A stretch of DNA of 64,000 bases from an uncultured delta proteobacterium (lineage in GTDB: Bacteria > Desulfobacterota > Binatia > UBA9968), in the NCBI GenBank assembly GCA_963801935.1, contig CAWDHA010000035.1, forward strand, positions 8,852-72,851, given 5' to 3'. Within the stretch, counting starts at the first letter, position 1. Each line of letters opens with the position of its first letter. The position numbers and the translations under genes were made by a program. Below, one piece after another: positions 88 to 32,420 of this stretch. The notes beneath the pieces are model-generated. The model had not been told where the DNA came from and did not search any database. It worked only from the letters and a program-made list of their open reading frames with translations.

Positions 88-252
88 GAAACGCGCATAG
101 CGCTAGGCGAAAAGCGCACGCGCCCAGATTTGCAGGCTGCTCAAAAAGATCCAGAGGCGAGGCGCGAGAAAGCGCATGGCGCAGAGAGCAAGGCGCATAG
201 CGTCAGGAGCTAAAACGCTTTGCGCTTAGCGCTTGGCGCTTTGCCAGACAGT
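88..252. repeat. GCGC-rich oligo-repeat hairpin element, copy 1 (family shared with 13226-13300)
   Basis: Runs of GCGCAT(A/G)GCG units are followed by the complementary CGCTTTGCGC units. It shares the exact 13-mer AGCGCATGGCGCA (171-183) and GGCGCATAG (192-200) with the copy at 13.2 kb. Confidence 0.6.
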
Positions 253-318
253 ACGTTGACGCGATATCGATCGAGCGCAACCAAGCCTATGGGTCTTTTT
301 CAGCAGCCTGCCAGCCTG

Positions 319-1176
319 TTAAAACTCGAAGGCAACATCGAGCTTGGCATCCGGCGACGCCAGATGAACACAAACGACCTCTCTGGCTTGGAAGGCGTAC
401 GGCTTGCAGATCGTCTCGTAGACTTCCGGCGGTTCTATGGAGAATTCTAAGCCATTCGTCGACAGCCGCGTGCAAGCGTTACCATTGGCAATGTTGACGA
501 ATTCTTTGCTGGCCTCGAGAGCCAGTTCGTCCGCTACGCTTACGGTTTCATCCAGCATCGTAGAAGCCATCTGCAACATTACCTTGGCAGGCACAGAAAG
601 CAGGCAGTTAAATTCGCCGGCGGCAGCACCGATCTTTTGTGAGAATAGCCAGCGAAACAACCGAACCTTCTCCTTGCCGACTTCGCACTGCTCGATTTTG
701 AGCTCCTGCTTGGCAAAGCGCGTAAACATAATCATCATCAAGTCTGTAAAGGTCTTGACGAGGTCTTTGTTGCGCACTTGATCGAATGCGGCAGCAAGTT
801 CGTAGGCAGCCTTTTTCTCGTCTTTATCGTATTGCTTGAACTCTTTTTCCAAGGTCTCAAGAGTTAAATAGCCCTTTGCCACGAGCACTTCCCCAAGCCA
901 GACGCGATGGCTTAGATCCTGCTGTCTGAGCAATTCATCGACTTGAGCTTGCGTGAGCAGGCCTGAACTAACCGCCAGCTCGCCGAAGCGATAGTTGGTT
1001 TTCTTTTGCAACTCGAGAACTCGTTCGATCTGCCCCGAAGTCAGCCAATTTCTTTCAAGCGCGAGAATTCCCAGCGGTGCTCTCAACGTTTTCTGACTAT
1101 CGAGTCCGGTGAAAAGCTGCTGCGAGGTAATCCTGCCGTTTTCCAAAAGATATTGGCCGAAGAATTTCGAGGTCAT
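319..1176 (-). CDS. MshEN-like (x2) / CheX-domain fusion protein, a putative c-di-GMP-responsive CheY-P phosphatase
   Basis: 285-aa ORF. The N-terminal half holds four tandem 24-residue units with the spacing xxGxxLLxxGxIxxxxLxxxLxxQ: FFGQYLLENGRITSQQLFTGLDSQ, PLGILALERNWLTSGQIERVLELQ, RFGELAVSSGLLTQAQVDELLRQQ and WLGEVLVAKGYLTLETLEKEFKQY. Spacers are 5-6 residues. The C-terminal half has a CheC/CheX-type ExxN motif (EASKEFVNIANGN). Confidence 0.6.
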   Translation of the reverse strand: MTSKFFGQYLLENGRITSQQLFTGLDSQKTLRAPLGILALERNWLTSGQIERVLELQKKTNYRFGELAVSSGLLTQAQVDELLRQQDLSHRVWLGEVLVAKGYLTLETLEKEFKQYDKDEKKAAYELAAAFDQVRNKDLVKTFTDLMMIMFTRFAKQELKIEQCEVGKEKVRLFRWLFSQKIGAAAGEFNCLLSVPAKVMLQMASTMLDETVSVADELALEASKEFVNIANGNACTRLSTNGLEFSIEPPEVYETICKPYAFQAREVVCVHLASPDAKLDVAFEF

Positions 1177-1293
1177 AGAGTCACCCCCGCTTGCTGGCAG
1201 ACGTTGTGCAGTATGGCTAACATTGGATTTTTGGCGAGCGGCTTCCGCAGAAAGCTCTCGTCACTTTTTTTCAAGCAAAGCGACGGCAAAGGG

Positions 1294-1309
1294 TGCAATA
1301 AGCCTGCCA
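1294..1309 (-). promoter_or_regulatory. candidate sigma54 promoter for the MshEN-CheX gene
   Basis: The minus strand reads TGGCAG-GCTTA-TTGCA (GG-N10-GC), about 118 nt upstream of the start at 1176. Confidence 0.45.
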
Positions 1310-1710
1310 TTCAAAGGCGGGCGCCGGCGGCAGCATGGAAGCTCCCTGACAACAGAGAATTTCTTGAATCAACGATAGCGGTTAAAATTTTACGGCAAGT
1401 TGGCCGCCAGAGGGGGGTCCAAATCGGCGGCGCATCGTTCAAATGCCGCGAAAGTCGCGCATCGGCCCGCCGCGCAACTGCAAAAACAAATGCGGAGTCA
1501 CTGTGAGCTGGACGAGAAATTTACAGCATCCTGCCATTTCTTTGACGACAGCCTCGCCGATTGAGACTGCCGCCATGCGGCATTTTAAAATACCGGCCAA
1601 GTTTTGCCGCCTGACAAATTCCATCTATTTATTCTAATAGGGGCCGCTAACTTATAATTTATGGCGTGCCATCTCATTCGCGATTTGGCTTCCCGCCAAG
1701 AGTTTAGCGC

Positions 1711-1726
1711 TGGCACGAGTTTGGCT
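1711..1726 (+). promoter_or_regulatory. candidate sigma54 promoter for the coiled-coil/KaiC-like/CBS operon
   Basis: CTGGCACGAGTTTGGCT matches YTGGCACGrNNNTTGCW at all positions but one, with GG-N10-GC spacing kept. It lies about 70 nt upstream of the TTG start at 1795, which is preceded by GGAG. Confidence 0.5.
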
Positions 1727-1794
1727 TTCTACAATCCGCGATTCCAGGGCAGCGCCCGTGCGCAAATGAAATTTCTCGAACAGGAGTCATCGGA

Positions 1795-4311
1795 TTGTTT
1801 GATCAAACAGACGACCTGGTAGCCAAGCGCGACGACCAGATGCTCGGCGAGAGCAGTGACAACTTGTTCGAACGTCTGGTAACCAGGGCTGAAGCCGACC
1901 TCAGAGTTGCCCAGGCGCTCGCCGCCCGCGAATCACAAAGGGCCGATCAGATCAAACGCTTGGAAACGACCTTGATCGGTCACATCAATAGGCTGCAGCA
2001 GCAAATCCTGGAGAGCCGCGAGGCAGAGCTCAAGAATCTTCGGTCCGAGATCTCGGTCTGTGCCGAGCGCATAACAGGGTTTGAAGGTACGCACAGTACG
2101 GCTGCCGTGAGAAAAGAAATGGCTGAGGAGTTGGGCGATTTGCGAGTGCGATTGACCGAGCGCCAATCTCAACTTGAAAACCGCCATTCGGGATTTGTCC
2201 AGCTGGGCGAATCTTTGAACGCTCATGTGCGCGCATTGGAAGATGAGTTACACGACGAGCTCGATGGCATCCGGACCGCCCAGGCTGAAATGGGCCAGTT
2301 CAAGTTGGCGACCCAGTCGTTGTCGGAGCGGGTTGCGCACGCCGAATCCTCGAGCTCGCGCGGGCGCGCACTGGCGTCTTACAATATCCAGCAACTCGAA
2401 CAGACCAGCAAGAGTCTGAGGAGTGAAATGAGCGCGCTCAACGCGCTGATTATCGAGCTCAATGACAAACAGGCCGAGCGCCGTTTGCCCGACACGTTAC
2501 TCCAGGAAGTGACGCATAATTTCGGCGCCAAGATTGAAGAATTTGAGCATTGGCTACAACAGGAACAACACATTCAACTGGGCCGCGATAGCCGTCTCGG
2601 TGAGCTCGATGCCGGGCTGGCGCTGCTCGCCGAGCGCGTGACAAAAACAGAGTCGCTGGCCCACGAAAGCCATGCGGCCGCTCTGGCCCAGTTAAATTCA
2701 GCGGCGGAGTTGCGCCAATCAACCGGCCGAGAACTAGCGGCTCTGGAAGCGAAACTCAACGACTTATCCTATCCGACGGCGGTCGATAAACTCGCCGAGT
2801 CGCTTGGTGCCCGGGCCGAGGAATGGCAATCCCAAGCAGAGCAAAAGTTCCTGCTGCTCGATAGCCGTGACCTCGAACGGGAAAGAAACGCCCGGGAACT
2901 CGCAGCGAATCTCGCCGCTAAACAGCTGGAACAAGAGGCGCGTACCGACGAAAAGCTCCAAGCCCTGACAAGGAATCATGAGGAACTGGCCGCTCTGCGC
3001 GCGGAAATCGAGCCACTCGCCGAGCGCATCGCCGTGAGCGAGTCTGCGGCACAGAGTGTTCGGGCGCAAACCGACTCGGCCGCCACGCAAACCGAACAAC
3101 TGGAAGATCGCCTAAAGAGCGCTCTGGCCGCGCTCAGCACCGAAGTCGCCCAACTTACCGAGCAACAGCAGGCTCTTAGTCTGGCGCAAGTTGAGCGGCG
3201 TGAGAACGGAACTAAACTCGCCATCGACTTGCTCGAAATACAGCGCCAAATGGCGCGCGAGCGCGATGCTTTCCAGCACTGGGGAAAGGGACTCAGCGAA
3301 TCTCTTGGCGCCGAGCTGAGCTCGACCGGGGCACAGCTTGGCGAGCGCCAAAGCGCGCTCGAAGATCGTTACGCAGGATTGGAACGTAGCCAGGAAACGT
3401 TCAAAGCAAACCTTGATGCGTTAGCAAGCCAACTTAAAGAGCAGCCCGCGCCAGAGCCCGAAGATCGTGAACTCTGGGACAAAATCCGCTCGGAATTGGC
3501 CGCACTCGGCGAGCGCATGAGCGGGCTCGAATCTCGAGTGCGCGAAGCAGATGACCGGGCTAATTTAATGAGCCGAGATACCGAGCACCAGGTCGGCGCA
3601 TTGCGCGGCGATTTGAGCGCGCTGGCAACATCATTTGATCAAAGGCCTCCCCCTTATGAATCGATCATTCACGGCATGGCGGACAAACTCGGTGCTAGAC
3701 TACAAGAACTTGAAGATCAGCTCACCAGGCAATTCAGCCTTTATGAGAAGCGCGACGGCGAACGAGACCAACGAACCGAACAGATGATCGCAACATTCAA
3801 GAGTGAAATCACCGCGCTTAGCGGCAAGCTTATGCAGCAACCGAGCGCCATCGCGCCCGACGATGCGGCGCTCAGCGCCGTAGCGGAGAGCCTGAGCGCG
3901 AAGATCGAAGAGCTGCGCCGGCAAACGGCAGAAAAATTCAACGCGCTCGCGAGCCGCGCCGCCGAAGCTCAAGCATTGACGGAAAGATCAGAGCCGGCGC
4001 GCGAGCGCCTGGCGCATTTAAGCGCCGCTCCCGAGTCATCCGGCGAGATCGCGATTTTCTCCGGTCAACCCGGCGCCGCGCCCGCCGACCTGAGCACGCG
4101 CCCGGTAGCAGCAGCGAAAGGAGCCGGCGACAGCGCCGCCGACGTTCACGGCCAGAGCGAGAAAGAACAGCTGATCAAGCTTGAGGAACGAATGTCCTCG
4201 GAAATCGAGCGCGTGCGGGCAGAGCTCAAGGCGCGGAGCGGTCGCTGGAAAGTCCGGCAAAGCGCAACCCTGAAGCGCTCCGGGCGTTTTTCCCTCGACC
4301 CGGAACTCTAG
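1795..4311 (+). CDS. 838-aa repeat-built coiled-coil protein, function unknown
   Basis: Long ORF with a TTG start and a GGAG RBS. It is E/L/A/Q/R-rich, with no hydrophobic segment. It contains at least 6 copies of a two-part module: xE(S/K)LGA+hEE (AEELGDLRVRL, THNFGAKIEEF, AESLGARAEEW, SESLGAELSS, ADKLGARLQEL, AESLSAKIEEL) followed by LxER+xxxES (LSERVAHAES, LAERVTKTES, LAERIAVSES, LGERMSGLES). Confidence 0.75.
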   Translation: MFDQTDDLVAKRDDQMLGESSDNLFERLVTRAEADLRVAQALAARESQRADQIKRLETTLIGHINRLQQQILESREAELKNLRSEISVCAERITGFEGTHSTAAVRKEMAEELGDLRVRLTERQSQLENRHSGFVQLGESLNAHVRALEDELHDELDGIRTAQAEMGQFKLATQSLSERVAHAESSSSRGRALASYNIQQLEQTSKSLRSEMSALNALIIELNDKQAERRLPDTLLQEVTHNFGAKIEEFEHWLQQEQHIQLGRDSRLGELDAGLALLAERVTKTESLAHESHAAALAQLNSAAELRQSTGRELAALEAKLNDLSYPTAVDKLAESLGARAEEWQSQAEQKFLLLDSRDLERERNARELAANLAAKQLEQEARTDEKLQALTRNHEELAALRAEIEPLAERIAVSESAAQSVRAQTDSAATQTEQLEDRLKSALAALSTEVAQLTEQQQALSLAQVERRENGTKLAIDLLEIQRQMARERDAFQHWGKGLSESLGAELSSTGAQLGERQSALEDRYAGLERSQETFKANLDALASQLKEQPAPEPEDRELWDKIRSELAALGERMSGLESRVREADDRANLMSRDTEHQVGALRGDLSALATSFDQRPPPYESIIHGMADKLGARLQELEDQLTRQFSLYEKRDGERDQRTEQMIATFKSEITALSGKLMQQPSAIAPDDAALSAVAESLSAKIEELRRQTAEKFNALASRAAEAQALTERSEPARERLAHLSAAPESSGEIAIFSGQPGAAPADLSTRPVAAAKGAGDSAADVHGQSEKEQLIKLEERMSSEIERVRAELKARSGRWKVRQSATLKRSGRFSLDPEL

Positions 4312-4314
4312 CAG

Positions 4315-5031
4315 ATGAACGAGACGCGCATACCCACTGGAATTCCCGAATTGGACGCTGTGCTCGGCGGCGGCTTTAGGCGCGGCAAAATTTATTTAGT
4401 CTTGGGCGAGCCCGGCACCGGCAAGACGATTTTCGCTCTGCAATTTCTCTATCAAGCGTTGCAGGACGGAGAAAAAGCGCTCTACGTTGCCATCGACGAA
4501 AAGCCCGCCGATTTAGTAGAACAGGCAAGCTCTCTAGGCTGGAACTTGACCCCGCATATCGAGCGCAAGAGTTTGTTGATCCTCGACGCCTCCGCTCTGA
4601 TCATAGCCCGGGTAAGCGATGTCAGCGCCAAAAACGACCTGCAAAAAACTATCGTCGAACTTAACAACCATATTATCAAAAGCGGTGCGACGCGCGTGGT
4701 GATCGATCCGGTGGGGCCGCTGCTATACGCCGCCGATTCGCCGTCCAAGGCGCAGGATCAGGCGCGCATGCTCATCGCTGCGCTGCAGAAGAACCCGGAA
4801 ACCACGACTCTGGTCACCTCCCAATCACTGGGGCGCAGCAGCCGGGGGATTGAGGAGTATCTGGTCGCGGGTACGATTGTTTTGGAACTAGAACTGGCCA
4901 GCAGCCGTTTCCTGCGCACCTTAACCGTTGAAAAAATGCGCAGCACGCCGCTCAATCCGGCGCAGTATCTGTTTACCATCATTGCCACAAAAGGCATCAC
5001 GATGCAGCTCAGTGGCGAGATTCTGGCATAG
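4315..5031 (+). CDS. single-domain KaiC/RadA/ArlH-like (COG0467-type) RecA-superfamily ATPase
   Basis: The N-terminus IPTGIPELDAVLGGGFRRGKIYLVLGEPGTGKTIFALQF carries a Walker A motif, and RVVIDPV is Walker B-like. The start lies 3 nt after the stop of the coiled-coil gene. Confidence 0.75.
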   Translation: MNETRIPTGIPELDAVLGGGFRRGKIYLVLGEPGTGKTIFALQFLYQALQDGEKALYVAIDEKPADLVEQASSLGWNLTPHIERKSLLILDASALIIARVSDVSAKNDLQKTIVELNNHIIKSGATRVVIDPVGPLLYAADSPSKAQDQARMLIAALQKNPETTTLVTSQSLGRSSRGIEEYLVAGTIVLELELASSRFLRTLTVEKMRSTPLNPAQYLFTIIATKGITMQLSGEILA

Positions 5032-5129
5032 CCGTCCTGACCGAAGGCTGCAAACGATGCTCCGATCTTAGGAACTTCGGTTTGCTGCCGATAGCAACAA
5101 GTAGAAAGCAATCATCGAAAGGGAAACTC

Positions 5130-5602
5130 ATGACAGAAGCGCAACCGGAACATTGTGGAGCTCAAAGGTCGGTGGCGAGTCTACCTGCCAATTTCGCTGA
5201 GGCGCCGCGCTCTGTGGCCGAGCTGATGACGATCGACGTCGTGACCTTGTACGCGCACAGCCTGTTCCGCGACGCGCTCGATCTGTTGGCGCGTAACCCG
5301 TTCCACCATCTGCTCGTCACAGAGATCGACGGCGGTCTGGCGGGGGTGATTTCCGATCGCGATGTGCTGCGCGCCGCCGACACCTATGATGCCGAGACCA
5401 CCCTGGTGGCGGACATTATGACTCCCGAGCCGATGACCCTCAGCGCCGATACACCGCTATCGGCTGCCATTACGATGACTCTCGACTATCACATCAATGC
5501 TTGCCGGTTGTCGATCATGCGGGGAGGGTGCGCGGTATTCTGACGACCACCGACTTGCTGAAGGCGTTCCAAGAGCTGCAACTAGCACTTGAACAACTTT
5601 AG
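5130..5602 (+). CDS. CBS-pair domain protein (apparent frameshift near 5500)
   Basis: CBS-like blocks are present (MTIDVVTL..., GVISDRDVL, IMTPEPMTLSADTPL). After HINA the frame changes: LPVVDHAGRVRGILTTTDLLKAFQELQLALEQL* reads in the +1 frame and ends at TAG 5600-5602. The track ORF is 5082..5543. The ATG at 5130 has an AAGGGAAA RBS. Confidence 0.65.
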
Positions 5603-5624
5603 ATGCCGTCTATTGACGACAGCA

Positions 5625-5657
5625 GACCGAAGACGGACGACCGATCGGTCTTCGGTC
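5625..5657. terminator. hairpin between convergent genes (candidate bidirectional terminator)
   Basis: GACCGAAGAC (5625-5634) and GTCTTCGGTC (5648-5657) form a perfect 10-bp stem between the CBS gene stop (5602) and the kinase stop (5664). No clear U-tract follows. Confidence 0.45.
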
Positions 5658-5663
5658 CGGTCA

Positions 5664-8600
5664 TCAGCCATCGGAACATGATAACCAACGCTGCAAGACT
5701 GCGTGTAGATCCTTTCGGCCGATCGGTTTCGTCACGTAATCGTCCATGCCAGCCGCCAGGCAGCGCTCGCGATCGCCTTGCATGGCGTTGGCGGTCATCG
5801 CGATGATCGGGATGCGGGTGCCGGATTTTTGCTCGCGCTTGCGCACTTCTTGGGTCGCTTGGAAACCGTCCATCTCAGGCATATCGCAGTCCATCAGAAT
5901 GACATCATAGGAAGTCCAAGCGATCGCTTCGAGTGCTTCGACGCCGTTGATCGCGACATCCAACGAATAGCCCAACTTCTCCAGCAGCAGGCTCGCCACC
6001 ATTTGATTGGCCATATTGTCTTCGACCACCAGCACGTGGCCGGCGCGATTATTTTCAGCCGCCGGCGCGGCGCCGGCCGGGTCTTCGCGGCTGGGCGCGG
6101 CCACGCGCTCGGCAGAGCGCCGCATCGCTATGGTAAACCAGAAAACGCTGCCTCTGCCCTCTGTGCTCTCGAGGTCGATCTTGCCACCCATCAGTTCTAT
6201 CATCCGTTTACAGATCGACAGACCCAGTCCCGTGCCACCGAAGCGTCGCGTCGTCGTCGCATCGCCCTGCGTGAACGGCTGAAAAAGTTGCGCTTTGGCA
6301 TCCGCCGATATGCCGATACCGCTGTCTCGGACGGTAAAACGCAGCGCCGATTCTTCACCTTTTTTTTCCTCAACCGCGACCTCGAGCGTGACTTCCCCTT
6401 TCTCGGTAAACTTCACCGCATTGCTCAAAAGATTCAATAAGATTTGTCTGAGCCGGCCGGCATCGCCGACAATGAAGTCCGGCACTTGGGCGGCGACGTT
6501 GAGAGCTATCAGCAGCTTTTTGTTGTGAATCTGAGGCGTCATGATATCGATGACGTCGCGCAGCAGCTCACTCAGTTTGAATTCCGTCGCTTCGATCTCC
6601 AGCTTGTTCGCCTCGATTTTGGAGAAATCCAGTATGTCATTGACAATCGTCAGCAGGCCGGCGCCGGATTGTTTGACCACCTCTACGAGCTTACGCTGAT
6701 GTTCCGATAGATCGTCGTCCAGCAAGGCCCGGGTCAAGCCGATAATACCGTTAAGCGGCGTGCGAATCTCATGGCTCATTGTCGCCAAAAACCGCGACTT
6801 TGCCTCTGCGGCAGCTTCTATTTCCCGGGCCTTTTCCAGGGCCGCATGCTGCTCGCGGATATCCTGGAAGAGTTGAGCATTGTTGATCACCATCGCAGCC
6901 TGCCCGGCGAGCAGGCCGACGAAGTCGGTCTCATCTTTGGTAAACTCCCGCCTGTGGCGCGCCGCGATCATAAGAGTGCCGAGGATGTTGCCCTTCATGA
7001 CGAGCGGCACAATCAGCAGCGATGCCAACTGATTGCGCCGGTAAAAGTCTCGATCAGCACAATCGGGATGGTTGGGCGCGTCGGCTATGATAACCAGTTC
7101 TTTCTTTTCCAGGGTTATGTCAGCGAACGAAGGCTTGCCATTCTCACACAAGGCCGTGAGCTCGCTCCAGGGGATACCCCGACTCACGGCGGGCTCCAGC
7201 CGCCCACTGGCTTTGTTTAACAAGCGAATCACCAGCGCGGTCGAGTAAGGCAAAGCTTGTTCGGTTTTTTCGGCGAGCAACTCCAGGACTTTTTGCAGTT
7301 CAAGGGTCGAGCTCAACGAAAGATTTATATCGTAGAGCGCCTCGATGCGGTTTAAGTTATTTTTCGTCTGCGAGAGCAAAAGCGCCTTCTGAATACCGAC
7401 GCCGATCTGCTGCGCGACGGTTTCCAAAAGCTCTATAATCGACTCGCCAATTTCGGTTTCGCTGCGGCTGGCGAGCTGCAGGAAGCCCAGGACATGCTCG
7501 CCGTCAACGATCGGCACGGACACCGAAGTCTCGGCCCCTTCGTGCTTTAAACTACGGAGCCTATCGCCCTCCTGAATATGGCTGTGGACCACGGTCTTAC
7601 GGCGCTCCATGACGTGAAGATGGCGCTCTTTACCGGCCCTGTCGCCGCGCGCTTTTCTTTCGAGGTTGCGCCCATCGTTATAGCCCCAGGAAGCGATCGG
7701 CGCTAGCCGGTCGGCGGCGGCGGTCGAAAGCAGGATCGTGCCCAGGTCAAATTTGCAGCGCTCGATGCAACAGCGCAAAATCTCGGTCAAGCAGCTTTCC
7801 GGATCCTCGGCGCTCAAGATCACCCGATTGACGTCTTGTAAGAAAATCAGGTTCGCCAAGCTAGCGCGCAGCGCGTCCTCGACCTGTTTGCGCGAGGTAA
7901 TGTCGATTTTGATTCCTCGCAAACCGATGTTAACGCCTTTATCGTTTTTGATAATGCGCACCATATCCCGCAGCCACAAAATCCGGCCGTCGGCGGCCCG
8001 GACTCGGTATTCGAGCGCATAATCGATGCCCAGTTCGGTCATTTTTCTGGATTCACGCAGCACCCGCGCCCGGTCCTCGGTGTGAATCATATTGCTCCAA
8101 AAATGCGGCTCGTTATACCAGCGGCGCAACGGATATCCGAGGATCGCTTCAGCGCCGTGGCTGACAAACGAAAATTTCCAGGAAAAGGCGTTGGTCTCCC
8201 AGATGATCGCCTCCAGAGACTCGACCAGCTCGCGCTGTCTTTGTTCCGCGAGGGCTCGATCCGCCTCCGCCGCCGCCCGCACCGTGAGCTCACGGCCGAG
8301 TTGGGCGTTGGCCGTTTCGAGCTGGCTGGTGCGCTGCGACACTTTGTCTTCAAGTTCCTTGTTGAGCAGCCGCACGCGCGCCTCGGCGAGCTGGGTCTCG
8401 CGCTGGCTATTCTGCAATGCCGCGGCCATCCGATTGATCTCTTGCCCCAGGGCGCCCAACTCATCGTAGCGGTTCTCTGCTACCCGCACGTTCAGGTCGC
8501 CGGCGCCAAGGCGGCGCGCCACATCCACGATATGAATGATCGGCCGGATAAAACTTCGCGCCAGAAGAAATGACAGCAAAGCGCCGGCGCTCAGAGAAAT

Positions 8601-9116
8601 CATGGTCATGTAAAGGATACCGCGCTGTCCGTCGCTGATGATCGCTTGAATGTGACTGAGAGAAAATCGGACATGCAAGTAGCCTATGGCCTTCTCGCCA
8701 CCCAAGCGGATGGGTCCGCCGACGTCCAGGTTGGCGCCGTGCATGGTACTAATCCACGCATCGCCTGCGGCAAGCATGGCGCGCTTGAACGAGACCCTTT
8801 GCGCGCTCGCGATTTCGCTGTCTCCCGGACCGCTAACCAGACTCTCGCCATGGGCGTCGCTGATGTTGATGTATTCGATATTCGGATTGCCGCGCGCGCT
8901 TTCCAGCGAGCGCTTGAGTTGCACCATGTCGAGAAAATAGATGGGATTGACCAGGGACTCGGCGAATAACTTGCCCGCTTGTAACGACTCTTTTGAAAAC
9001 TCGGCCTCCAAATACTGTTTTTGATGGTACACGGAATAGGCCGCGATGCTGCCGGCGACTAACAACGCCAGACTGAAAGTAAACAGCAGAAGTTTTAAGC
9101 GGATGCTGAATTTCAT
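5664..9116 (-). CDS. hybrid sensor histidine kinase (TM-sensor-TM, HAMP, PAS, 2x GAF, HisKA, HATPase_c, REC)
   Basis: 1150-aa ORF. H-box [15 protein letters not shown] boxes [10 protein letters not shown] and [12 protein letters not shown]-terminal receiver VLVVEDN...[12 protein letters not shown]...VTKPI. HAMP-like [10 protein letters not shown]...[12 protein letters not shown]. Confidence 0.9.
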
Positions 9117-9212
9117 AGGATTGATGGCGCCAACTTGAGCCGGCGCATCGACCGATTAGCCGGCGCGCTCGGCCCGCTGCCCGCAATAACAGGCGAGCTC
9201 CCGGGCTGCGCT

Positions 9213-9605
9213 TCAGCTTGGCTCGCCGTCCATCGAAAGAAGTTCGGCGACGGATTTGGCTCTCAGTTTTGCCAATACCGCGTTGACGGATTTGAAATCG
9301 TTTTCCAGTTGCCCCACCTGCTGGCCGAGCTCCATCATCCGTCCGGCGCGCGATTCGAGCTCGAGCTTTTTTGCCAGATTGGAAAACGCCGTGGCGCCCA
9401 GATTGGCGCTGCTTGACTTGAGGGTGTGGGCGGCGCGCGTGAAGTCAGCCTGGTTGCCGATCTCGAACGCCAGGCGGAGCGTCGCCAGGCAACGGCACGC
9501 TTCGGCGCAGTAGACATCGACCAGTCTTAAAAAAAAATCAGCGCCGCCTTCGCGTACCCAGTGCCGGGCTTTTTCCATGATTTCTTCTCGGCTCGCTTCA
9601 GACAC
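9213..9605 (-). CDS. Hpt (histidine phosphotransfer) domain protein
   Basis: 130-aa ORF with AAHTLKSSSANLGA, the phospho-accepting His context of Hpt domains. It lies directly upstream of the hybrid kinase. Confidence 0.8.
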   Translation of the reverse strand: MSEASREEIMEKARHWVREGGADFFLRLVDVYCAEACRCLATLRLAFEIGNQADFTRAAHTLKSSSANLGATAFSNLAKKLELESRAGRMMELGQQVGQLENDFKSVNAVLAKLRAKSVAELLSMDGEPS

Positions 9606-9638
9606 AGGGTGAACCTCCGGTCTTTTCTCCTACGCCGG

Positions 9639-11117
9639 TCAAATTTGCACAGATTCAAATACTTCGATTTCAGCGAGTCTGAGCCTGTGAAAATCGTTTA
9701 TCATCTCGGCGTCTATGCGCCGCCCTCGACTCATCGGCACGGCTGCGCCGCAGTCAAGGGCGCGGGCGAGCACCATCCCTTCACAAATATCCGCGATCGC
9801 GACATTGCGGACCGGCAGACCGTCGGTGCGCACAGCCACGGAAAAGTAGATCCCCTCACCGAAGGAGAAGGTCATCTCGAAGTCCTGGCGCAGTTCCACA
9901 GAGCCGTCGAGACCGGTTCTGTCTTCGACGCAAGGAAGTCCGAGGATGAACTCCTTGCCTTCGTCACCGAGACTCTCGTTGACGCGGCCGCCGATGATAT
10001 TGAGCGCTTCCGCCAGGGTGCTCCGAACAAGGTCCATGCTGGTTGCCGCTTGATGTTCATCCATTTGCAGCATCAGCATAGCCATCGCGACAACGCAGGC
10101 CCGATCGCAGCGAAATTCGATTTTGATCCGTTTGCTTTCCTTGAATCCGAGAAGCGCGATCGCCGCGCAGGTGCTCGGTTTTGCGGCAGCGAGCTCCGCT
10201 GGCTGCGGCTCGAGCGAAACTTCAGTGGACATCATCATGCTGAATACCTGCTCGGTGGCGCAGATCAGAGGTTGGCGCAGGCTTTCTGAATTATCGAACG
10301 GCGCCCTATCGGCGATGATTCCGCCCAGGCAGCGCTCAAACGACTCGGCAAAAATTTGTGGAACAAACGTGCGTTTCACGCGGCCGTCGTACAACGACTC
10401 CTCGGCTGCGTTTGCTTCATCATCCGCATCTACGGCATATATCTTGATTGCCGCGAGGCTGGGAATAGTGCGCAGCTTGGCAACCATGCGATCGCGGCCA
10501 AACAAACCGATCTCTGAGCCTGCGAGGAGAACCTGAGGAGAGTGCTTTATGCTCGCGGCGATAGCCTGAGCGCCATTGGTCGCCTCCAACACATTAAATC
10601 GCGCTGCCAATGTCGTTGCTAGGAAGTGGCGAAAGTTAGCATCGCCGTCGACCACCAGAATAACCTCTCGACCGGGTTCAACAACGGCGTCCTGCCCGGA
10701 GATTAGCACGCTCGCTGGGACGAACAGGCGCGACTTGAGTTCTCCGAGCTTGCTGGCTAAGCGCTTGACCAACCGATTCGCATTGTAAGGTTTGATAATG
10801 TAGTCAAATATTTTCAGTTCCAGCAGAGATCGGATGGTATCGGAGTCGGTATTCGCTGAAATGATGATGACCGGCAGTTGCGCGGTTTTGGACCATTGGC
10901 GAATTTCAGCTAGCACCTCGATGCCGCTTAGAAACGGCATCATGACATCGAGAAAGAGCAAATCGAAATTGCCGTCGGTGAGTCTATTTAGCCCGTCGAG
11001 ACCGTCGGTGGCGATTTCGACATCGCAACCGAGCTTTCTTATAAGTAAGTAAGCGAGCGTCTCGCCGTCCGTTTGACAGTCATCGATCACCAGCGTTTTA
11101 AGTGCGTTATCCTTCAT
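9639..11117 (-). CDS. multidomain response regulator: REC, degenerate REC-like, CheX-like phosphatase domain and a C-terminal extension
   Basis: N-terminal receiver (LVIDDCQ...LLFLDVMMPFLSG...IKPY). A second REC-like segment follows (ILVVDGDANFRHF...). The CheC/CheX active-site consensus S-x3-E-x2-N is present (STLAEALNIIGG). Confidence 0.75.
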   Translation of the reverse strand: MKDNALKTLVIDDCQTDGETLAYLLIRKLGCDVEIATDGLDGLNRLTDGNFDLLFLDVMMPFLSGIEVLAEIRQWSKTAQLPVIIISANTDSDTIRSLLELKIFDYIIKPYNANRLVKRLASKLGELKSRLFVPASVLISGQDAVVEPGREVILVVDGDANFRHFLATTLAARFNVLEATNGAQAIAASIKHSPQVLLAGSEIGLFGRDRMVAKLRTIPSLAAIKIYAVDADDEANAAEESLYDGRVKRTFVPQIFAESFERCLGGIIADRAPFDNSESLRQPLICATEQVFSMMMSTEVSLEPQPAELAAAKPSTCAAIALLGFKESKRIKIEFRCDRACVVAMAMLMLQMDEHQAATSMDLVRSTLAEALNIIGGRVNESLGDEGKEFILGLPCVEDRTGLDGSVELRQDFEMTFSFGEGIYFSVAVRTDGLPVRNVAIADICEGMVLARALDCGAAVPMSRGRRIDAEMINDFHRLRLAEIEVFESVQI

Positions 11118-11141
11118 GGCCTCGGGCCTCTACACCAACTG

Positions 11142-11168
11142 AATCGGCGAGCTTTTATCGAGGCTTAA
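11142..11168 (-). promoter_or_regulatory. possible sigma28 (FliA)-type promoter upstream of the REC-REC-CheX gene
   Basis: The minus strand reads TAAG-N15-GCCGATTC (consensus TAAA-N15-GCCGATAA). The -10 element ends 23 nt before the ATG at 11117. Confidence 0.25.
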
Positions 11169-11259
11169 TCCGGATCAGCTCTGACCGCGCACCCCAGCGC
11201 CAATATCATGAACTATAAGAACCGGCTTTGCAGCCGATTCTTCAATAAGACTGACTCCG

Positions 11260-12036
11260 GTGACGTTTATGATGATCACGGCAACGATTGTAATCATTGC
11301 GAGCGCCCTGGCCACGTTCTTGGTTCTGCTGCGGCGCCGATGGCGCGGGCCTGCTCCCGCCAAAAATAGTGAGCCTTCAATCCTGCCGAGAGTGGGGGTT
11401 ACGCTTGCCGGCGGCTTCATCCGCGGCCAGGACTACATTCCGGTTTTCTTTCAGGTAGAGGAGCGCAAGGGCGCGAAGCTGATGCTGCAGATTTTGTCAG
11501 AGTTTGGCGCGAGCCCGCTGTTGGGCATCGGCCCCGGAACCAGCGGCCGGCTGGAGGTCGGAACCCATTATTTTCCGATAGAGGTCGTACAGCCGAGTTT
11601 GCCATGGGTTCAAGTCCAGGCTTTTCCGCACCAGGCAAAGAAAGTGCATCGAGATTCTGTCCGCATCCCCGTTTCGTTGCCGGTGCGCTTCCGTGAGCTG
11701 GGATCGGCGCGGCCCTGGCAGGCCGGCAAGTGCGTCAACATCAGCGCCGGCGGCCTGTCCCTTTTGTCGGATTGTCCTGCACCGCCGTTGGTCGGTCGCT
11801 ATTATCAAGTTGAGATCGCGCTTACGGCCGCTCGTCAGGCCGGGGAAAAGCTTGCGCTCGCGGGCGCGGTGCGCTGGACTCAACCTATCAGAGGCGGCAC
11901 AATCGCCGGGCTTCACGTCGCCGAGCCGGCGTCGCAGCGCGAGCTCACAAAATTGGTTTCTCAACTGCAGCGTCAAATGGCGCGCCACCAGCAGGATTAT
12001 CTCTTAGAAACCAGCGCCAGGCCCAATCTCCAGTAG
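11260..12036 (+). CDS. membrane-anchored YcgR-like PilZ-domain protein (c-di-GMP receptor)
   Basis: PilZ signature RxxxR (RDSVR) plus (D/N)xSxxG (NISAGG). N-terminal hydrophobic segment ITATIVIIASALATFLVLL. The start may be GTG 11260 or ATG 11269. Confidence 0.75.
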   Translation: MTFMMITATIVIIASALATFLVLLRRRWRGPAPAKNSEPSILPRVGVTLAGGFIRGQDYIPVFFQVEERKGAKLMLQILSEFGASPLLGIGPGTSGRLEVGTHYFPIEVVQPSLPWVQVQAFPHQAKKVHRDSVRIPVSLPVRFRELGSARPWQAGKCVNISAGGLSLLSDCPAPPLVGRYYQVEIALTAARQAGEKLALAGAVRWTQPIRGGTIAGLHVAEPASQRELTKLVSQLQRQMARHQQDYLLETSARPNLQ

Positions 12037-13225: not shown

Positions 13226-13300
13226 GAGCGCATGGCGCAAAGCGCATGGCGCATAGGATTCTCGCTTTGCGCTTTGCACTTTGCGCTCTGCGCTTTTCCT
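13226..13300. repeat. GCGC-rich oligo-repeat hairpin element, copy 2
   Basis: GCGCAAAGCGCA (13235-13246) pairs with TGCGCTTTGCAC (13268-13279) at 11 of 12 positions. It shares AGCGCATGGCGCA and GGCGCATAG with 171-200. Confidence 0.6.
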
Positions 13301-14504
13301 ACTCCGTCACCTGCAAAGCCAGAATGGCCTGGTCATCGCGCTGCCGTTCGCCGCCGAGAAACCGATCAACTTGGCAAAACAGATCTTCCACCATTTGCTC
13401 AATCGGCAATTTGGCCGAGCGCGCGCAAGCATCGGCAAGACCCTGCTCGCCAAACATCATATTGCGCGCGTCCATCGCCTCAATGATGCCGTCGGTGTAG
13501 CACACGATCCTTTGGCCGGGGCTGAGCTGAACAGCGGCGCCGGGAAAATCAGCGTCTGGCATTATGCCAACGATCCCCGGGGTTACGTACAGGCGTTCTA
13601 ATGACGGCCGGTCCGGCCCGAGCAGTAAAGCGGGGGGATGACCCGCGCCGGCATAGGAAAAAGTACTGCTCTTGCTGTTCCATAGCCCGACGAACCCGGT
13701 CAAGAACTCCCCGGTGGCAAGATACCCGTAAATCTGGCGGTTGAGCCAGCCTAAAAGTTTAGCCGGCTCATGGCATTGTTCGATGCCGGTGCGAAACAAA
13801 ACCTTGGCAACACTGGTAATCAGCGCTGCGGCCAGACCATGGCCCGAAACGTCCGCAATTATGATCGCCACTTCATGTTCCCCCACCGCCGCAACATCGA
13901 ACATGTCGCCGCCGACGACATGGCTCGGCCGGTAGCGGTGGCCAAAGGCCAATCTACGCCCTTGCGGGAAAACGTTGGTCAGGAAACGCTGCTGTACGCA
14001 CCGCGCCTGCTCCAGTTCGAATTCAGTTTCCGCTTCGCGCCGGCGGTCTTCCTCCAACTGGCGCGACTGTTCTTTCACGACGCTGCGCAACTGAGTGAGC
14101 GGCCGGTAAGAACGAATACGCGCCTGAATGCGCGCCACCAGTTCAGTGGCGTTGACCGGCCAGCTTATAAAGTCCTCTCCGCCCAACTCTAAACCTTCGA
14201 CAACGTGCTGATCGGGATCTAGAACCGAGACGAAAAGCACCGGAATCTCTGCGCTGCGCGGGTCGGCCTTCATCCTGCGACAAACTTCGAAACCGCCGAT
14301 TTCCGGCATCAAGACATCGAGCAGCACGACATCGGGCAAGGTTCGGCTGACAAGCGCCAACGCGCTCAAGCTGTTATCGGCTTCGAGTACGGTGAAAGTC
14401 TGGTCGAGAATCCGGCGCAGGAGAAAACGTTTGTCGTCGTTGTCGTCAACCACCAGCACAACGGGGGTGGCAGCGGCGATATCAGGCTGCTGAGAAAGAT
14501 TCAC
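13299..14504 (-). CDS. response regulator with PP2C/SpoIIE-type phosphatase output (RsbU-like)
   Basis: Receiver VVLVVDDNDD...VLLDVLMPEIGG. PP2C motifs VGGDMFDV and IADVSGHGLAAAL, followed by the C-terminal QRDDQAILALQV. Confidence 0.85.
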   Translation of the reverse strand: MNLSQQPDIAAATPVVLVVDDNDDKRFLLRRILDQTFTVLEADNSLSALALVSRTLPDVVLLDVLMPEIGGFEVCRRMKADPRSAEIPVLFVSVLDPDQHVVEGLELGGEDFISWPVNATELVARIQARIRSYRPLTQLRSVVKEQSRQLEEDRRREAETEFELEQARCVQQRFLTNVFPQGRRLAFGHRYRPSHVVGGDMFDVAAVGEHEVAIIIADVSGHGLAAALITSVAKVLFRTGIEQCHEPAKLLGWLNRQIYGYLATGEFLTGFVGLWNSKSSTFSYAGAGHPPALLLGPDRPSLERLYVTPGIVGIMPDADFPGAAVQLSPGQRIVCYTDGIIEAMDARNMMFGEQGLADACARSAKLPIEQMVEDLFCQVDRFLGGERQRDDQAILALQVTE

Positions 14505-25520: not shown

Positions 25521-26375
25521 CTAGCGGCCGCCCGCCGCCGCCGCCTGCGCCCGCGCCTTGTTGGCATCTTCCTGCAGCCACCCGCGAATGATACGCGTGG
25601 TGGCATCGTGATAGTCTCGGGCGATCTGGGTGAGCTGCTCTTTGCGCGGGTCTTCCACCATGATGACTTTTTGCGCCACTACCGCGACCTCTTCCTGCAC
25701 CTGGGCGCTCGTCGCCGTCGTTATCGCCGTTTCGCTGACCGGCGTTGATTGCGCCACCGCTGGCTTCGAGCGGCGTTTCATCAACAGAAAAATCACGACG
25801 CCAACGATCAGCACCGCGCCGGCGGCGACGCCGAGGCCGATCGGAGTCCGGACCATGTCTTTGAGATTGGGCGGCGCAATAGGCGGCGCCGGCAGCGCCG
25901 GTTGAATTTTGAACGGCACATTGGCGACTTCGATCTGATCGCCCCGCGCCGCGTCAAAGCCGACGGCGCGTTTGACCATACCTGTGATGACTTCGATCTC
26001 GTCTTTGGCGCGCGCGATATACTTATCTTTCTGATAAGTGCCGTCAACCAGCACGGCGACGGAAAGCTTCTGCACCTGACCGCGTGGTTCCATGACGCGG
26101 CTCGTGGTCCGGCCGACTTCGTAGGTCACCATTTCGCTGCTGCGTTTAGTAGCCGTCTCAGCGGCCGTTCGCCCGGCCTCGCCGCCGGGAATGTTAGACT
26201 GGACGCCCGGCACGCCGCCGCCTTTAAGACCGGAGTCATCCAGCGCCTGGCGCTGGCTGCGCACGACCCGGTTCTGCGGGTCGAATTGCTCCTTGGTCAT
26301 TTGCGTCTCTTGCGGATTGATCTGGACATTGGCGCGCACCACGACTTTGCCCGTTCCTAACACCGGGTCGAGCAT
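25521..26375 (-). CDS. fliF: flagellar M-ring protein FliF, C-terminal fragment (gene split by a frameshift near 26376-26410; full span 25521..27141)
   Basis: MLDPVLGTGKVVVRANVQI... plus a C-terminal TM segment and the FliG-binding tail. The same frame upstream reads EQEIERRIET, joining the upstream fragment. Confidence 0.85.
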   Translation of the reverse strand: MLDPVLGTGKVVVRANVQINPQETQMTKEQFDPQNRVVRSQRQALDDSGLKGGGVPGVQSNIPGGEAGRTAAETATKRSSEMVTYEVGRTTSRVMEPRGQVQKLSVAVLVDGTYQKDKYIARAKDEIEVITGMVKRAVGFDAARGDQIEVANVPFKIQPALPAPPIAPPNLKDMVRTPIGLGVAAGAVLIVGVVIFLLMKRRSKPAVAQSTPVSETAITTATSAQVQEEVAVVAQKVIMVEDPRKEQLTQIARDYHDATTRIIRGWLQEDANKARAQAAAAGGR

Positions 26376-26403: not shown

Positions 26404-27141
26404 TCATGCTTTGAGCTTCAGTTGATTGAGCTTTTCCGCCTCGCTGCCCGCCGCCGCCGCGACAATCTCTTTCAGCGGCCGGCCGGAGCTGTCGATCACC
26501 GTGACCTTGTCGGCGCTCAGTTTCGCGACCGAGCTGGCGACCAGATTGACGATGCCCTGCACCTGGTCGGGACTGAGATGGTACCCAGGCCTCAAGTCCA
26601 CCACCACCGACGCCGAAGGCTTCTCTTCCTGTCCGAGAAAATTGGTTCGCGCCGGCAGCGCCAGATGGACGCGACTCGACTGCACCGCTGAAAGCGAATT
26701 GATGGTGCGCGACAGTTCGCCCTGGAGCGCGCGCAGATAGTTTACCTGTTGCGTGAATTCGCTGACTCCGAAGGGGGTTTTCTCAAAAATTTCGAAGCCG
26801 ATGCCGCTTCCGGCAGGGATGCCCTTGCCGGCGAGTTTCAAGCGCGTCGAATAGACGATTGCGCCCGGCACTTCGATCGCGGTGCCGCCGGCCGAAAGAA
26901 TGTAAGGAATTTTTGCCGCTTCCAACTCCTTGACGATCGCCGCGCCATCCTGCGATGACAGGTTGGAAAAAAGCGGCGCATAGCTGATGCGGTCATAAGC
27001 GCGATGGCCGGCGTAGGCGAGGCATAGAAAGAGCGGCACGCCAATGAACAACAAACGTTTTTGGCGCGGTGAAAGAAACTCAAGGAGACGCCTGAGCGTT
27101 TCCTTGAGGTCGTTAAAAAAATGGACCAGTTGTTCAGGCAC
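26404..27141 (-). CDS. fliF: flagellar M-ring protein FliF, N-terminal fragment
   Basis: N-terminal TM segment, then YAPLFSNLSSQDGAAIVKELEAAKIPY...VYSTRLKLAGKGIP...YLRALQGELSRTI, typical of the FliF/YscJ fold. GTG start. Confidence 0.85.
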   Translation of the reverse strand: MPEQLVHFFNDLKETLRRLLEFLSPRQKRLLFIGVPLFLCLAYAGHRAYDRISYAPLFSNLSSQDGAAIVKELEAAKIPYILSAGGTAIEVPGAIVYSTRLKLAGKGIPAGSGIGFEIFEKTPFGVSEFTQQVNYLRALQGELSRTINSLSAVQSSRVHLALPARTNFLGQEEKPSASVVVDLRPGYHLSPDQVQGIVNLVASSVAKLSADKVTVIDSSGRPLKEIVAAAAGSEAEKLNQLKLKA

Positions 27142-28509: not shown

Positions 28510-29881
28510 TTATAATTCTCCCTGGTACTGTTTCTCGCGGTATTGCTTGAGCTTGTTGCGCAGGGTGCGCACGCTGATGCCCAACAGCTTGGCGGCTTGA
28601 GTGCGGTTATCGTCGACTTGCCTGAGCGTCTTAAAAATCAATTGCTCCTCCATCGCGCGCACCGAGACCATGCTGTCCGGCTTGGCTGGCGGCGCTGGAT
28701 CGCTGCTGTTCTGAGCGTCGGCGCGCTTGGCTGCGCGCCGATAAAATCTTGATCTGATCCCAAGCCTTCTTCGAGCAGCAGATGCGCCGGTTCGATGATG
28801 CCGCCGTCAGCGACGATCGCCGCGCGCTCTAGCACATTGAATAATTCGCGGACATTGCCGCGCCACGGATTGCTCTTGAGCTGGCTCAGCGCCGCGGCCG
28901 TGAGCTCTGCCCGCGGATAACCGTGTTTCGCAAAAAAAGCTCGCGCCAGCGGCGCGATGTCTTCGCTGCGCTCGCGCAGCGGGAAAAGCCTGACCGGCAC
29001 GACGTTCAGTCGATAGAAAAGATCTTCGCGGAAAGTTCCCGAGCGGATCATCTCGCGGAGATCGCGGTTGGTCGTGGAGATCACCCGAATATCGATCGGC
29101 AACGGTTTTTTTCCACCGACGCGATCGACCTCGCGTTCCTGCAAGACCCGCAGAAGTTTAGCCTGAAGCGCCATCGGCATCTCGCTGATTTCGTCGAGTA
29201 AAATAGTGCCCGCGTCGGCGAGCTCGAACTTGCCCGGCTTGTTGCTAACGGCGCCCGTGAAGGCGCCGCGTTCGTGACCGAATAATTCTGATTCCAGGAG
29301 GCCGTCGGGCAAGGCGGCGCAGTTGACCGCGACAAACGGGCCGGAGCTCCGGCGGCTGTGTCCGTGGATGTCGCGCGCCAGCAGTTCTTTACCCGTGCCG
29401 CTCTCGCCTTGAATCAAGATCGAAGCGTGGGATTTGGCCACGTGGCGGACAAAATCGAGCAGCGCGAGCATGCGCGGATGCGCGCTGACGATGTCGCCGT
29501 CAGGTACGGCGCCGGCTTCGTCGCGGCCGGCCCGCGATAACGCCGATTCAACCAAGCGCTATCAGCTCGCGGTACGAAAAAGGCTTGACGACGAAGTCAT
29601 AAGCGCCGATTTTCATGGCCTCGACCGCTTCGGGCACGGTAGCAAACCCGCTGATCATGATAAAAGGAATGCTGGGTAAACTGCTTGAGCAGCTCCAGGC
29701 CGCCGAGTTCCGGCATGCGGATATCGCTGATGACCAGATCGGCGCCGTAGCGGCGCAGATGCTGCTCGGCTTCGCCGCCGTGGCAGAAAACTTCCGCGTT
29801 ATAGCCGGCCGTGCGGAGCGCCTCGCCCAGGGCCGAACGCATGGTTGGATCATCGTCCGCGATCACGACTCGGTTGTGCAT
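28510..29881 (-). CDS. sigma54-dependent response regulator, NtrC/FlrC/FleR-like (REC + AAA+ + Fis-type HTH; at least 3 apparent frameshifts)
   Basis: REC: MHNRVVIADDDPTMRSAL...LVISDIRMPELGG, then IPFIMISGFATVPEAVEAMKIGAYDFVVKPF in a second frame. AAA+: [19 protein letters not shown]...ESELFGHERGAFTGA. HTH: NRTQAAKLLGISVRTLRNKLKQY in a third frame, with a stop at 28510-28512. Confidence 0.8.
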
Positions 29882-31150: not shown

Positions 31151-32352
<1,202 letters not shown>

Positions 32353-32404
32353 AGGCGCTCCTTTACTGATTTCGATTTCCAAGAAATTGATCGTTTGCCG
32401 TTTT

Positions 32405-32420
32405 AGCACGCTCCATGCCA
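32405..32420 (-). promoter_or_regulatory. candidate sigma54 promoter upstream of the receiver-less activator gene
   Basis: The minus strand reads TGGCAT-GGAGC-GTGCT (GG-N10-GC), about 55-70 nt upstream of ATG 32352. Confidence 0.4.

Follow-up and report, generated by a model that had tools for sequence, protein, structure and literature searches.

The CII domain of KaiC and the archaeal motility protein ArlH autophosphorylate, and the archaellum motor receives chemotaxis input. In bacteria, an ATPase and an adaptor encoded with a che operon organize chemosensory arrays in space, as ParC and ParP do in Vibrio and PpfA and TlpT in Rhodobacter, and coiled-coil proteins serve as outputs of chemosensory systems (FrzS and AglZ in Myxococcus, HmpF in Nostoc), FrzS and AglZ carrying receiver domains. 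To our knowledge, the bacterial flagellar and chemotaxis machinery described so far includes no KaiC- or RecA-type ATPase. Among the Binatota, three orders are reported to lack flagellar genes (PMC8262859). Here we analyze a stretch of 64,000 nucleotides (nt), referred to throughout as the window, from an uncultured delta proteobacterium (Binatia; UBA9968; assembly GCA_963801935.1, contig CAWDHA010000035.1, positions 8,852-72,851, forward), in which a gene for a single-domain KaiC-type ATPase follows a gene for a coiled-coil protein of 838 amino acids (aa), here called the partner, behind a sigma-54-type promoter.

Results

A conserved bicistronic operon linked to che and flagellar genes

Positions 1711-5031 of the window are a conserved bicistronic operon of Candidatus Binatia-type bacteria, lying behind a conserved sigma-54-type promoter. 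Its features, with a candidate site upstream, are as follows.

1533-1546, forward strand: candidate upstream activator site GCCATTTCTTTGAC (GTCA-N6-TGAC type), placed 178 nt ahead of the -24 box
1711-1726, forward strand: sigma-54-type -24/-12 promoter TGGCACGAGTTTGGCT (GG-N10-GC), found as CTGGCACGAGTTTGGCT at 1710-1726
1783-1786, forward strand: ribosome-binding site GGAG, 8 nt ahead of the TTG start
1795-4311, forward strand: partner gene, encoding an 838-aa segmented coiled coil; TTG 1795 is the first start codon of the open reading frame (ORF)
1864-1974, forward strand: conserved N-terminal head, aa 24-60, LFERLVTRAEADLRVAQALAARESQRADQIKRLE, from the invariant or near-invariant columns of the partner alignment
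2185-3987, forward strand: six-repeat region, aa 131-171, 233-273, 327-367, 494-535, 622-663 and 690-731
4159-4257, forward strand: C-terminal tail helix and basic end, aa 789-821, EKEQLIKLEERMSSEIERVRAELKARSGRWKVR, with invariant columns and a predicted local distance difference test (pLDDT) score of about 85 in AlphaFold2 (AF2)
4315-5031, forward strand: single-domain KaiC-CI-like RecA-superfamily ATPase, 238 aa, starting 3 nt after the partner stop

The -24/-12 element, the GGAG site and the TTG-initiated 838-aa ORF of the original prediction were all found where, or close to where, it had placed them. We assembled 95 loci encoding the ATPase, 80 of which were added by a metagenome scan, for a total of 1.49 Mb of locus DNA. 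The presence of the partner could be assessed in 83 loci (64 with it, 19 without), and 9 were too short to judge. ATPase identity is 77-96% inside the window's clade, and soil metagenomes hold a large set of orthologues of about 239 aa at 55-68% identity. The NCBI labels of these orthologues are mainly Candidatus Binatia, with some noise. A scan of genome contigs with the single ATPase returned only three close Binatia metagenome-assembled genomes (MAGs) and one irrelevant weak match. The coiled-coil family is small: a protein search with the 838-aa protein found 22 homologues, one of them labelled Candidatus Binatia.

The partner lies directly upstream of the ATPase in 64 of the 83 assessable loci, and in all eight contexts retrieved through the coiled-coil protein the KaiC-like ATPase is immediately downstream, with a CBS gene in none of them. 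The gap between the two genes is 3 nt in the window's subclade only and 42-263 nt elsewhere, so the tight coupling that had been read into this gap is specific to the subclade.

The operon is almost always divergent from cheY-cheD-cheA-cheW-mcp. Upstream DNA extends for 1.2 kb or more in 33 partner loci, and in 32 of them a divergent cheY leads into cheD-cheA-cheW-mcp, to which cheR and cheB are sometimes added. Only the window, together with L004, departs from this: the two sit in a flagellar cluster instead, and their divergent neighbours are a CheX/DUF4388-like gene, fliMN, motAB and flagellar export genes (MotAB, FliMN and FliOPQR/FlhBA upstream in L004). At 16-33 kb the window encodes FlgE, FlgD, FliK, FliJ, FliI, FliH, FliG, FliF and FliE, along with two Sigma54_activat proteins and a HisKA kinase, placing the operon inside a flagellar cluster with two sigma-54 activators. 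Many che-linked loci also have flgE and flgD nearby. The link to che and fla genes proposed from the window alone is thus borne out across loci. One outlier, L010, adjoins pilMNOP. The gene call for its partner (5786-6874), at 178 aa, is too short; a 362-aa ORF from ATG 5786 includes the head.

A footprinted sigma-54-type promoter

The -24 box is perfect and the GG-N10-GC spacing exact, and the -12 box reads TGGC, not TTGC (T-14 to G), in all loci. Canonical sigma-54 sites are not enriched in the window, with 12 sites within two mismatches versus 12.75 expected. The variant TGGCAY-N5-TGGC(T/A) occurs once (0.12 expected). Because a single match in one window is not unusual, the significance of the promoter rests on its conservation across loci. 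There, counting both strands, the variant has 59 matches in the locus DNA, and 58 of the 59 come from 58 different loci, each on the strand of the ATPase and ahead of either the partner gene or the ATPase gene. The sequence flanking the 16-mer has diverged across loci and the 16-mer itself is kept, with the start codon 84-90 nt after it and an AGGAG ahead of the start retained in homologous loci. This phylogenetic footprinting in 58 loci supports the assignment of the 16-mer as a putative sigma-54-type promoter, as first proposed. L010 does not carry the exact variant; by eye we spotted CCGGCGCCTAATTGCA about 85 nt upstream, a sigma-54-like element with GG-N9-GC spacing.

Further upstream, all 9 loci of the window's clade have a GTCA/GCCA-N6-TGAC box between -178 and -195; overall it is found in 13 of 57 loci, over a background of 0.021 per 400 nt. 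The consensus proposed for FleQ of P. aeruginosa is GTCaNTAAAtTGAC, as quoted in PMC6120874. The half-sites of the box resemble this consensus, a resemblance that is no more than a lead. The window's clade also has a second conserved block, TGACAGTTTTCCGTC...CGTCCAATTACGACC, at about -105 to -65 (around 1600-1650 in the window). Both blocks were seen in the upstream regions of the window, L001, L002, L005-L008 and L019, and they may be activator or integration host factor (IHF) sites.

The two Sigma54_activat proteins are encoded at 28638-29555 and 31591-32784, both on the reverse strand, by short ORFs of 305 aa and 397 aa. No receiver or helix-turn-helix domain was found in either with E up to 1e-4; frameshifts may have truncated them, or they may be atypical. 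Elsewhere in the window, three reverse-strand sites (1294-1309, 31165-31180 and 56-71) resemble the canonical sigma-54 consensus, each with a single mismatch and with TTGC as its -12 box. One of them precedes the divergent CheX/DUF4388-like gene (319-1176) by 118 nt, and L004 has the same site; another coincides with the 5' end of the ORF for the HisKA kinase, which lies between the two activator genes. With the patterns used, the divergent che operon has a sigma-54-like site in only 2 of 33 loci and a sigma-28-like site in none of the 33.

The partner is a segmented rod with conserved ends

The first gene encodes a soluble, segmented coiled-coil rod made up of a conserved head, variable repeats, a disordered linker and a tail ending in GRWKVR. 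The 838-aa protein has no family match in Pfam or NCBIfam and no membrane segment, its maximum 19-residue Kyte-Doolittle mean being 0.72, which agrees with the absence of hydrophobic segments reported earlier. Its heptad periodicity stands at z = 11 above shuffles. In the AF2 model it is nearly all helical, with nine long helices and short breaks between them, disorder at residues 744-781 and a confident C-terminal helix. The predicted template modelling score (pTM) of the rod is 0.19 and we used the secondary structure alone; low global confidence is expected because this is a monomeric model of a rod.

The head, KD-LFGWLVGRAAADLGLAQALAASEAQR-EQIKRLE, is shared by complete partners, including those whose ATPases are only 56-60% identical. 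The middle of the protein is built from a repeat family with the consensus IKGLEESLGAKIEELQQQLAQKLSLLESRDAELEEL and a core of about 36 residues, and each module starts right after a helix break predicted by AF2. A hidden Markov model (HMM) of 42 residues, built from the six copies in the window, recovers all six (aa 131, 233, 327, 494, 622 and 690), with one match in 220 shuffled sequences as a control. The earlier count of at least six repeats therefore stands, as does that of the LxER+xxxES motif, which is present four times in the translation (LSERVAHAES, LAERVTKTES, LAERIAVSES and LGERMSGLES). Complete partners range from 295 to 1169 aa with 2-13 detectable modules; homologues of about 960 aa carry at least 8 copies, some of them without a counterpart in the window protein.

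The tail follows the motif L-(Q/H)-E-R-(M/I)-S-x-(E/D)-I-E-R-(V/A)-R-A-E-L-(K/R)-E-(K/R)-S-G-R-W-K-V-R; in 64 loci it ends the ORF that immediately precedes the ATPase. We searched 1.84 billion representative proteins exhaustively with the 55 tail residues and recovered only 27, each carrying the motif at its extreme C-terminus. A few tail-bearing proteins have a different head and keep both the tail and the downstream ATPase; in one of them (P0185) the ATPase comes next, followed by a response regulator (RR)-SpoIIE/STAS/anti-sigma module and then flgE. A partner subclade (L072, L074, L081, L087, L089, L092, L093 and L095) ends in ...IERVRAELRKRAGV(S/G)R, not in ...KERSGRWKVR: the helix is retained and the Trp-containing basic end is lost.

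We considered and rejected two identities for the partner. SMC/Rad50 profiles scored 21-30 bits against NCBIfam cut-offs of 300-729 and matched coiled-coil stretches only; Pfam finds no P-loop domain in the 838-aa protein, which has no Walker A/B head domains. The automatic SMC-type names are coiled-coil artefacts; annotations from the Joint Genome Institute (JGI), for instance, call the partner 'chromosome segregation ATPase' or 'SbcCD'. It is also not a methyl-accepting chemotaxis protein (MCP), with no match to PF00015 (MCPsignal) at E up to 0.01. Nor do Pfam and NCBIfam recognize a receiver or CheY-binding domain. The profile searches thus support a novel coiled-coil repeat protein of no known family.

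The ATPase resembles the CI domain of KaiC

The ATPase matches PF06745 (KaiC) with E = 2.5e-59 and 200.9 bits against a cut-off of 26.6, its residues 6-230 covering profile positions 1-226 of 231. It has the Walker A motif GEPGTGKT and the Walker B motif RVVIDPV, in keeping with the KaiC/COG0467-type enzyme that had been recognized 3 nt after the partner stop. In 18 diverse orthologues, G(E/Q)PGTGKT, D131 and the catalytic acidic pair D61/E62, which align to the motifs of KaiC CI, are invariant or nearly so, and the invariant residues include K37/T38, D61/E62, D131, E180/E181, R198, R201, K207 and R209. The closest solved relatives are KaiC, through its CI domain, and archaeal single-domain KaiC-like proteins, with FlaH and RadA remote. 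A single-chain AF2 model (pLDDT 75.8, pTM 0.77) gave Foldseek template modelling (TM) scores of 0.75-0.79 to KaiC CI and 0.74 to PH0284.

Residues I179-E180-E181-Y182 align with V196-E197-E198-F199 of KaiC CI. In KaiC, CI E197/E198 are the counterparts of the CII phosphosites S431/T432, and this is the stated reason why CI cannot autophosphorylate (PMC2777353). The position equivalent to T426 is not conserved in the ATPase alignment, where it is S, T, V or A. With its CI-like motifs, modelled fold and Glu-Glu pair, the protein looks like an active, slow ATPase of the CI type and not an autokinase clock element.

The ATPase falls below all curated NCBIfam cut-offs for KaiC, ArlH, RadA and RadB. 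We rejected circadian KaiC, since the protein has one domain in 238 aa and scores 138.6 versus 408 bits and 102.8 versus 546 bits (NF006799/TIGR02655); no kaiA or kaiB Pfam families were found among the called genes of the loci examined or the scanned ORFs of the window. ArlH/FlaH was rejected as well, with 58.1 versus 215 bits for NF052589, a match to FlaH (PDB 4wia) of E = 1e-6 over 110 residues in the N-terminal part only, and neighbours that are bacterial che and flagellar genes. RadA/Sms (TIGR00416) reaches 42.5 versus 403 bits over residues 2-90 only, and an ATPase of just 238 aa leaves no room for the RadA zinc finger and Lon-like domains. These scores place the enzyme outside both RadA/Sms and ArlH.

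Neighbouring genes and probable contig errors

Downstream of the operon we mapped the following features.

5130-5603, forward strand: CBS-pair gene, specific to this genome, frameshifted near 5499-5501 and outside the conserved unit
5625-5657, no strand assigned: hairpin with a perfect 10-bp stem (dG -29 kcal/mol, z = -2.2) between convergent genes, with no U tract
5664-9116, reverse strand: HAMP-PAS-GAF-GAF hybrid histidine kinase
9213-9605, reverse strand: Hpt protein
9639-11117, reverse strand: receiver-CheX protein
11260-12036, forward strand: PilZ protein

The CBS pair is readily detected (PF00571, E = 2.6e-17, in two stretches). A 1-nt frameshift near 5499-5501 interrupts the second CBS domain, so that frame 1 ends at 5543, and the remainder, with its canonical end LPVVDHAGRVRGILTTTDLLKAFQELQLALEQL*, is read from 5501 onward in a different frame as far as TAG 5601-5603; this stop matches the end at 5602 that the original prediction had given for its unit. 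The frameshift is likely due to an undercalled T run (gcttg where gctttg is expected). Split genes elsewhere in the window make assembly indels a likely cause: FliF is divided over 25521-26375 and 26404-27141; a type I phosphodiesterase over the overlapping ORFs 54450-55604 and 55396-56337; and a solute-binding protein over 38735-39790 and 40222-40839. In each of the three, the two ORFs match complementary parts of a single Pfam model. These split ORFs suggest assembly indel errors or pseudogenes.

The original prediction had counted the CBS gene as the third member of a conserved trio and the hairpin as the end of the unit. Both elements are present, the one frameshifted and the other without a U tract, and the trio does not hold. 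By tblastn the CBS gene is in none of the 94 other loci, and L004, which is 89% identical, is colinear with window 251-5059, to just past the ATPase stop, and no further. The conserved unit therefore consists of the promoter and two genes, 1711-5031, and the CBS gene is an incidental, possibly damaged neighbour. No convincing terminator was picked up by a simple scan behind either the ATPase or the CBS gene, and the scan did not report the 5625-5657 hairpin.

The kinase, Hpt, receiver-CheX and PilZ genes form a signalling block at 5664-12036. Beyond it, a response-regulator-SpoIIE phosphatase recurs between the ATPase operon and flgE/flgD, usually with STAS and HATPase_c_2 partner-switching genes (window 13299-14504, reverse strand; L005 11836-13686; L006; L016; two further retrieved contexts). 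This group could be a regulatory module of the flagellar cluster.

Discussion

A possible ATP-gated adaptor for chemotaxis or flagella

We favor, at a probability of roughly 0.45, a reading in which the operon encodes a sigma-54-controlled slow ATPase switch that is linked by a rod adaptor to the chemosensory or flagellar apparatus. The ATPase would form a KaiC-CI-like hexamer and serve as a slow switch set by its nucleotide state instead of an autokinase timer. The rod is probably docked on the ATPase by the tail helix, since no other feature of the partner is found with the ATPase in every case, and the head probably touches a chemosensory or flagellar component. The pair would then be an ATP-gated adaptor or tether that organizes or regulates the chemotaxis or flagellar machinery, a role that fits a partner whose ends are conserved and whose middle is variable. 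Because of the sigma-54 control, we would expect expression together with flagellar genes of the early or middle tier.

A more specific form of this reading is an accessory flagellar or chemotaxis module in which a predicted KaiC-CI-like hexamer is docked, by way of the conserved tail, on a variable-length coiled-coil 'ruler' with its head on the array or the flagellar switch. We regard this form as doubtful. If true, flagellar motility in bacteria would have its first ATPase of the RecA/KaiC type, and the pair would be functionally analogous to archaeal ArlH-ArlX; repeat number would set the length of the rod and so tune a spatial quantity, for example the distance from array to motor or from array to pole.

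Several observations weigh against a motility switch. The -12 box is TGGC instead of the canonical TTGC, and no rpoN gene is seen in the window. The structure models are single-chain, and the hexamer and the contact between rod and ATPase are things that we infer. The data come nearly all from uncultured MAGs and metagenome contigs, where taxonomy labels are noisy. Promoter and ATPase are also present without the partner and without che genes in 19 loci (those named are L014, L053, L055, L060, L063, L064, L068, L075, L077-L080, L084, L086, L088, L090 and L094). The ATPase is equally conserved in these orphan loci and in partnered ones, and a comparison of the two sets of clades for partner-specific ATPase residues found that only E83 differs, which is uninformative. 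Since the orphan loci keep a conserved ATPase, it is not strictly dependent on the scaffold, and its core role may be independent of motility.

Alternative readings

This last point leads to the alternative that survives best, in which the ATPase is a sigma-54-controlled housekeeping, stress or nucleic-acid-related enzyme with no role in motility, and the che operon and coiled-coil gene are a mobile or insertable module that landed between promoter and ATPase. In the orphan loci the downstream synteny is unchanged (a TctC-like gene, S4/Hsp15, SurE, CinA) and enolase-nth is often upstream; the 16-mer again precedes the ATPase directly, lying at -73 to -78 in one of the clades and farther away in another. 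The neighbour-joining tree places the orphans in about two clades nested among partnered loci, a pattern in which the che genes and the partner come and go together as one gain-or-loss unit and the promoter and ATPase form the stable core. An enzyme conserved equally well without its partner, in an S4/SurE/CinA neighbourhood, speaks for this alternative. A chance landing sits poorly, however, with a partner that is always found between this promoter and the ATPase in three different contexts (che operon, flagellar cluster and pilMNOP), with an ATPase that is present in every partner context examined, and with a partner tail as extremely conserved as that of a fixed binding partner would be. 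We consider a motility-independent enzyme unlikely, if still a serious alternative.

The che operon might instead be a chemosensory pathway of alternative function, controlling type IV pili, polarity or development, say, rather than flagellar rotation, with the rod and ATPase as its dedicated output and CheY~P binding to the head. A single-domain cheY is indeed the immediate divergent neighbour in 32 of 33 loci, one family member adjoins pilMNOP, and the coiled-coil outputs of Myxococcus and Nostoc provide precedents. The window and L004 argue otherwise, lying without a che operon among fliMN, motAB and flgE, as do the many che-linked loci with flgE/flgD close by and the lack of any recognizable receiver or CheY-binding domain in the partner. 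On balance an output of this kind seems distinctly unlikely.

A different objection concerns the promoter, since the conserved 16-mer, instead of being a sigma-54 promoter, could be an operator at which a lineage-specific transcription factor binds. Its letters form a direct repeat, TGGC-N7-TGGC, and its -12 box is TGGC where the other sigma-54-like sites in the window use TTGC. Against an operator stand the exact GG-N10-GC spacing and perfect TGGCAC/T -24 box in 58 loci, the fixed distance of 84-90 nt to the start codon and the sigma-54 activator genes in the same flagellar region, and we think it improbable.

Finally, the phosphorylation-gated timer of the original prediction, in which a KaiC-like autokinase and autophosphatase cycle gates the scaffold, has in its favor that the ATPase belongs to the KaiC family, in which KaiC CII and ArlH autophosphorylate, and is very improbable given the invariant E180/E181 at the S431/T432 positions, mimicking a CI domain that cannot autophosphorylate, the variable T426-equivalent position (S/T/V/A), the single domain and the lack of kaiA or kaiB genes in the loci examined. 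A phospho-timer role of the ATPase thus appears unlikely from its residues.

Significance

What is new here is that an ATPase of the KaiC superfamily has a partner from a novel family and is linked to bacterial che and flagellar genes in a way not described before. No curated family in Pfam or NCBIfam matches the pair of coiled coil and ATPase, and we found no paper describing it; when the literature was searched for KaiC-like ATPases of bacterial flagella or chemotaxis, the only relevant subjects to come up were archaeal ArlH and the archaella transferred to Chloroflexota. Family profiles and literature thus uphold the earlier view that no described system matches. The pair gives a concrete and testable candidate for an accessory system of motility or chemotaxis that would be new, with its own conserved promoter, a dedicated partner family and near-obligate che linkage, and this linkage spans dozens of independent metagenomic loci in a widespread uncultured soil phylum. 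Differences in repeat number among the rods amount to a natural experiment on length. The analysis also corrects the automatic names given to the partner ('chromosome segregation ATPase' or 'SbcCD') and to the ATPase ('circadian clock protein KaiC').

Comparison with known systems

SMC/Rad50 proteins share with the partner a weak profile similarity in its coiled-coil region only. FrzS, AglZ and HmpF are long coiled coils genetically tied to a che-like cluster, but no sequence relation was detected and none of them is known to be paired with a KaiC-like ATPase. The likeness of ParC/ParP and PpfA/TlpT to the Binatia pair is one of analogy only, that of an ATPase and an adaptor encoded with a che operon; their ATPases are of the ParA/MinD type, and their adaptors have CheW-like or MCP domains that are absent from the Binatia rod.

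ArlH (FlaH) with ArlX/ArlCDE offers the nearest conceptual parallel, a single-domain KaiC-like ATPase with a coiled-coil scaffold in a motility machine (see PMC5019145). The sequence relation is remote, however; the window has no arlI, arlJ or archaellin genes and its neighbours are bacterial flagellar genes, and ArlX is membrane-anchored whereas the Binatia rod has no membrane segment. The archaeal single-domain KaiC-like proteins PH0284, PH0186 and SSO2452 have the same one-domain architecture (E about 1e-23 to 1e-25, TM 0.74); their roles are unknown or stress-related, with no known coiled-coil partner and no known che or flagellar linkage.

The best match in sequence and structure is the CI domain of KaiC: phmmer E values reach 1.8e-47 with full-length KaiC, and the TM score is 0.75-0.79 across the entire domain. 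The window ATPase differs from KaiC in its 238 aa without a CII ring or phosphosites, in the absence of kaiA and kaiB genes, in its equivalog score (138.6 bits versus a cut-off of 408), and in its position behind a sigma-54-type promoter with linkage to che and flagellar genes. What it shares with CI is the Walker A and B motifs, a catalytic acidic pair (D61/E62, versus E77/E78 in KaiC), basic residues near the trans-acting fingers and the Glu-Glu at the position of CI E197/E198.

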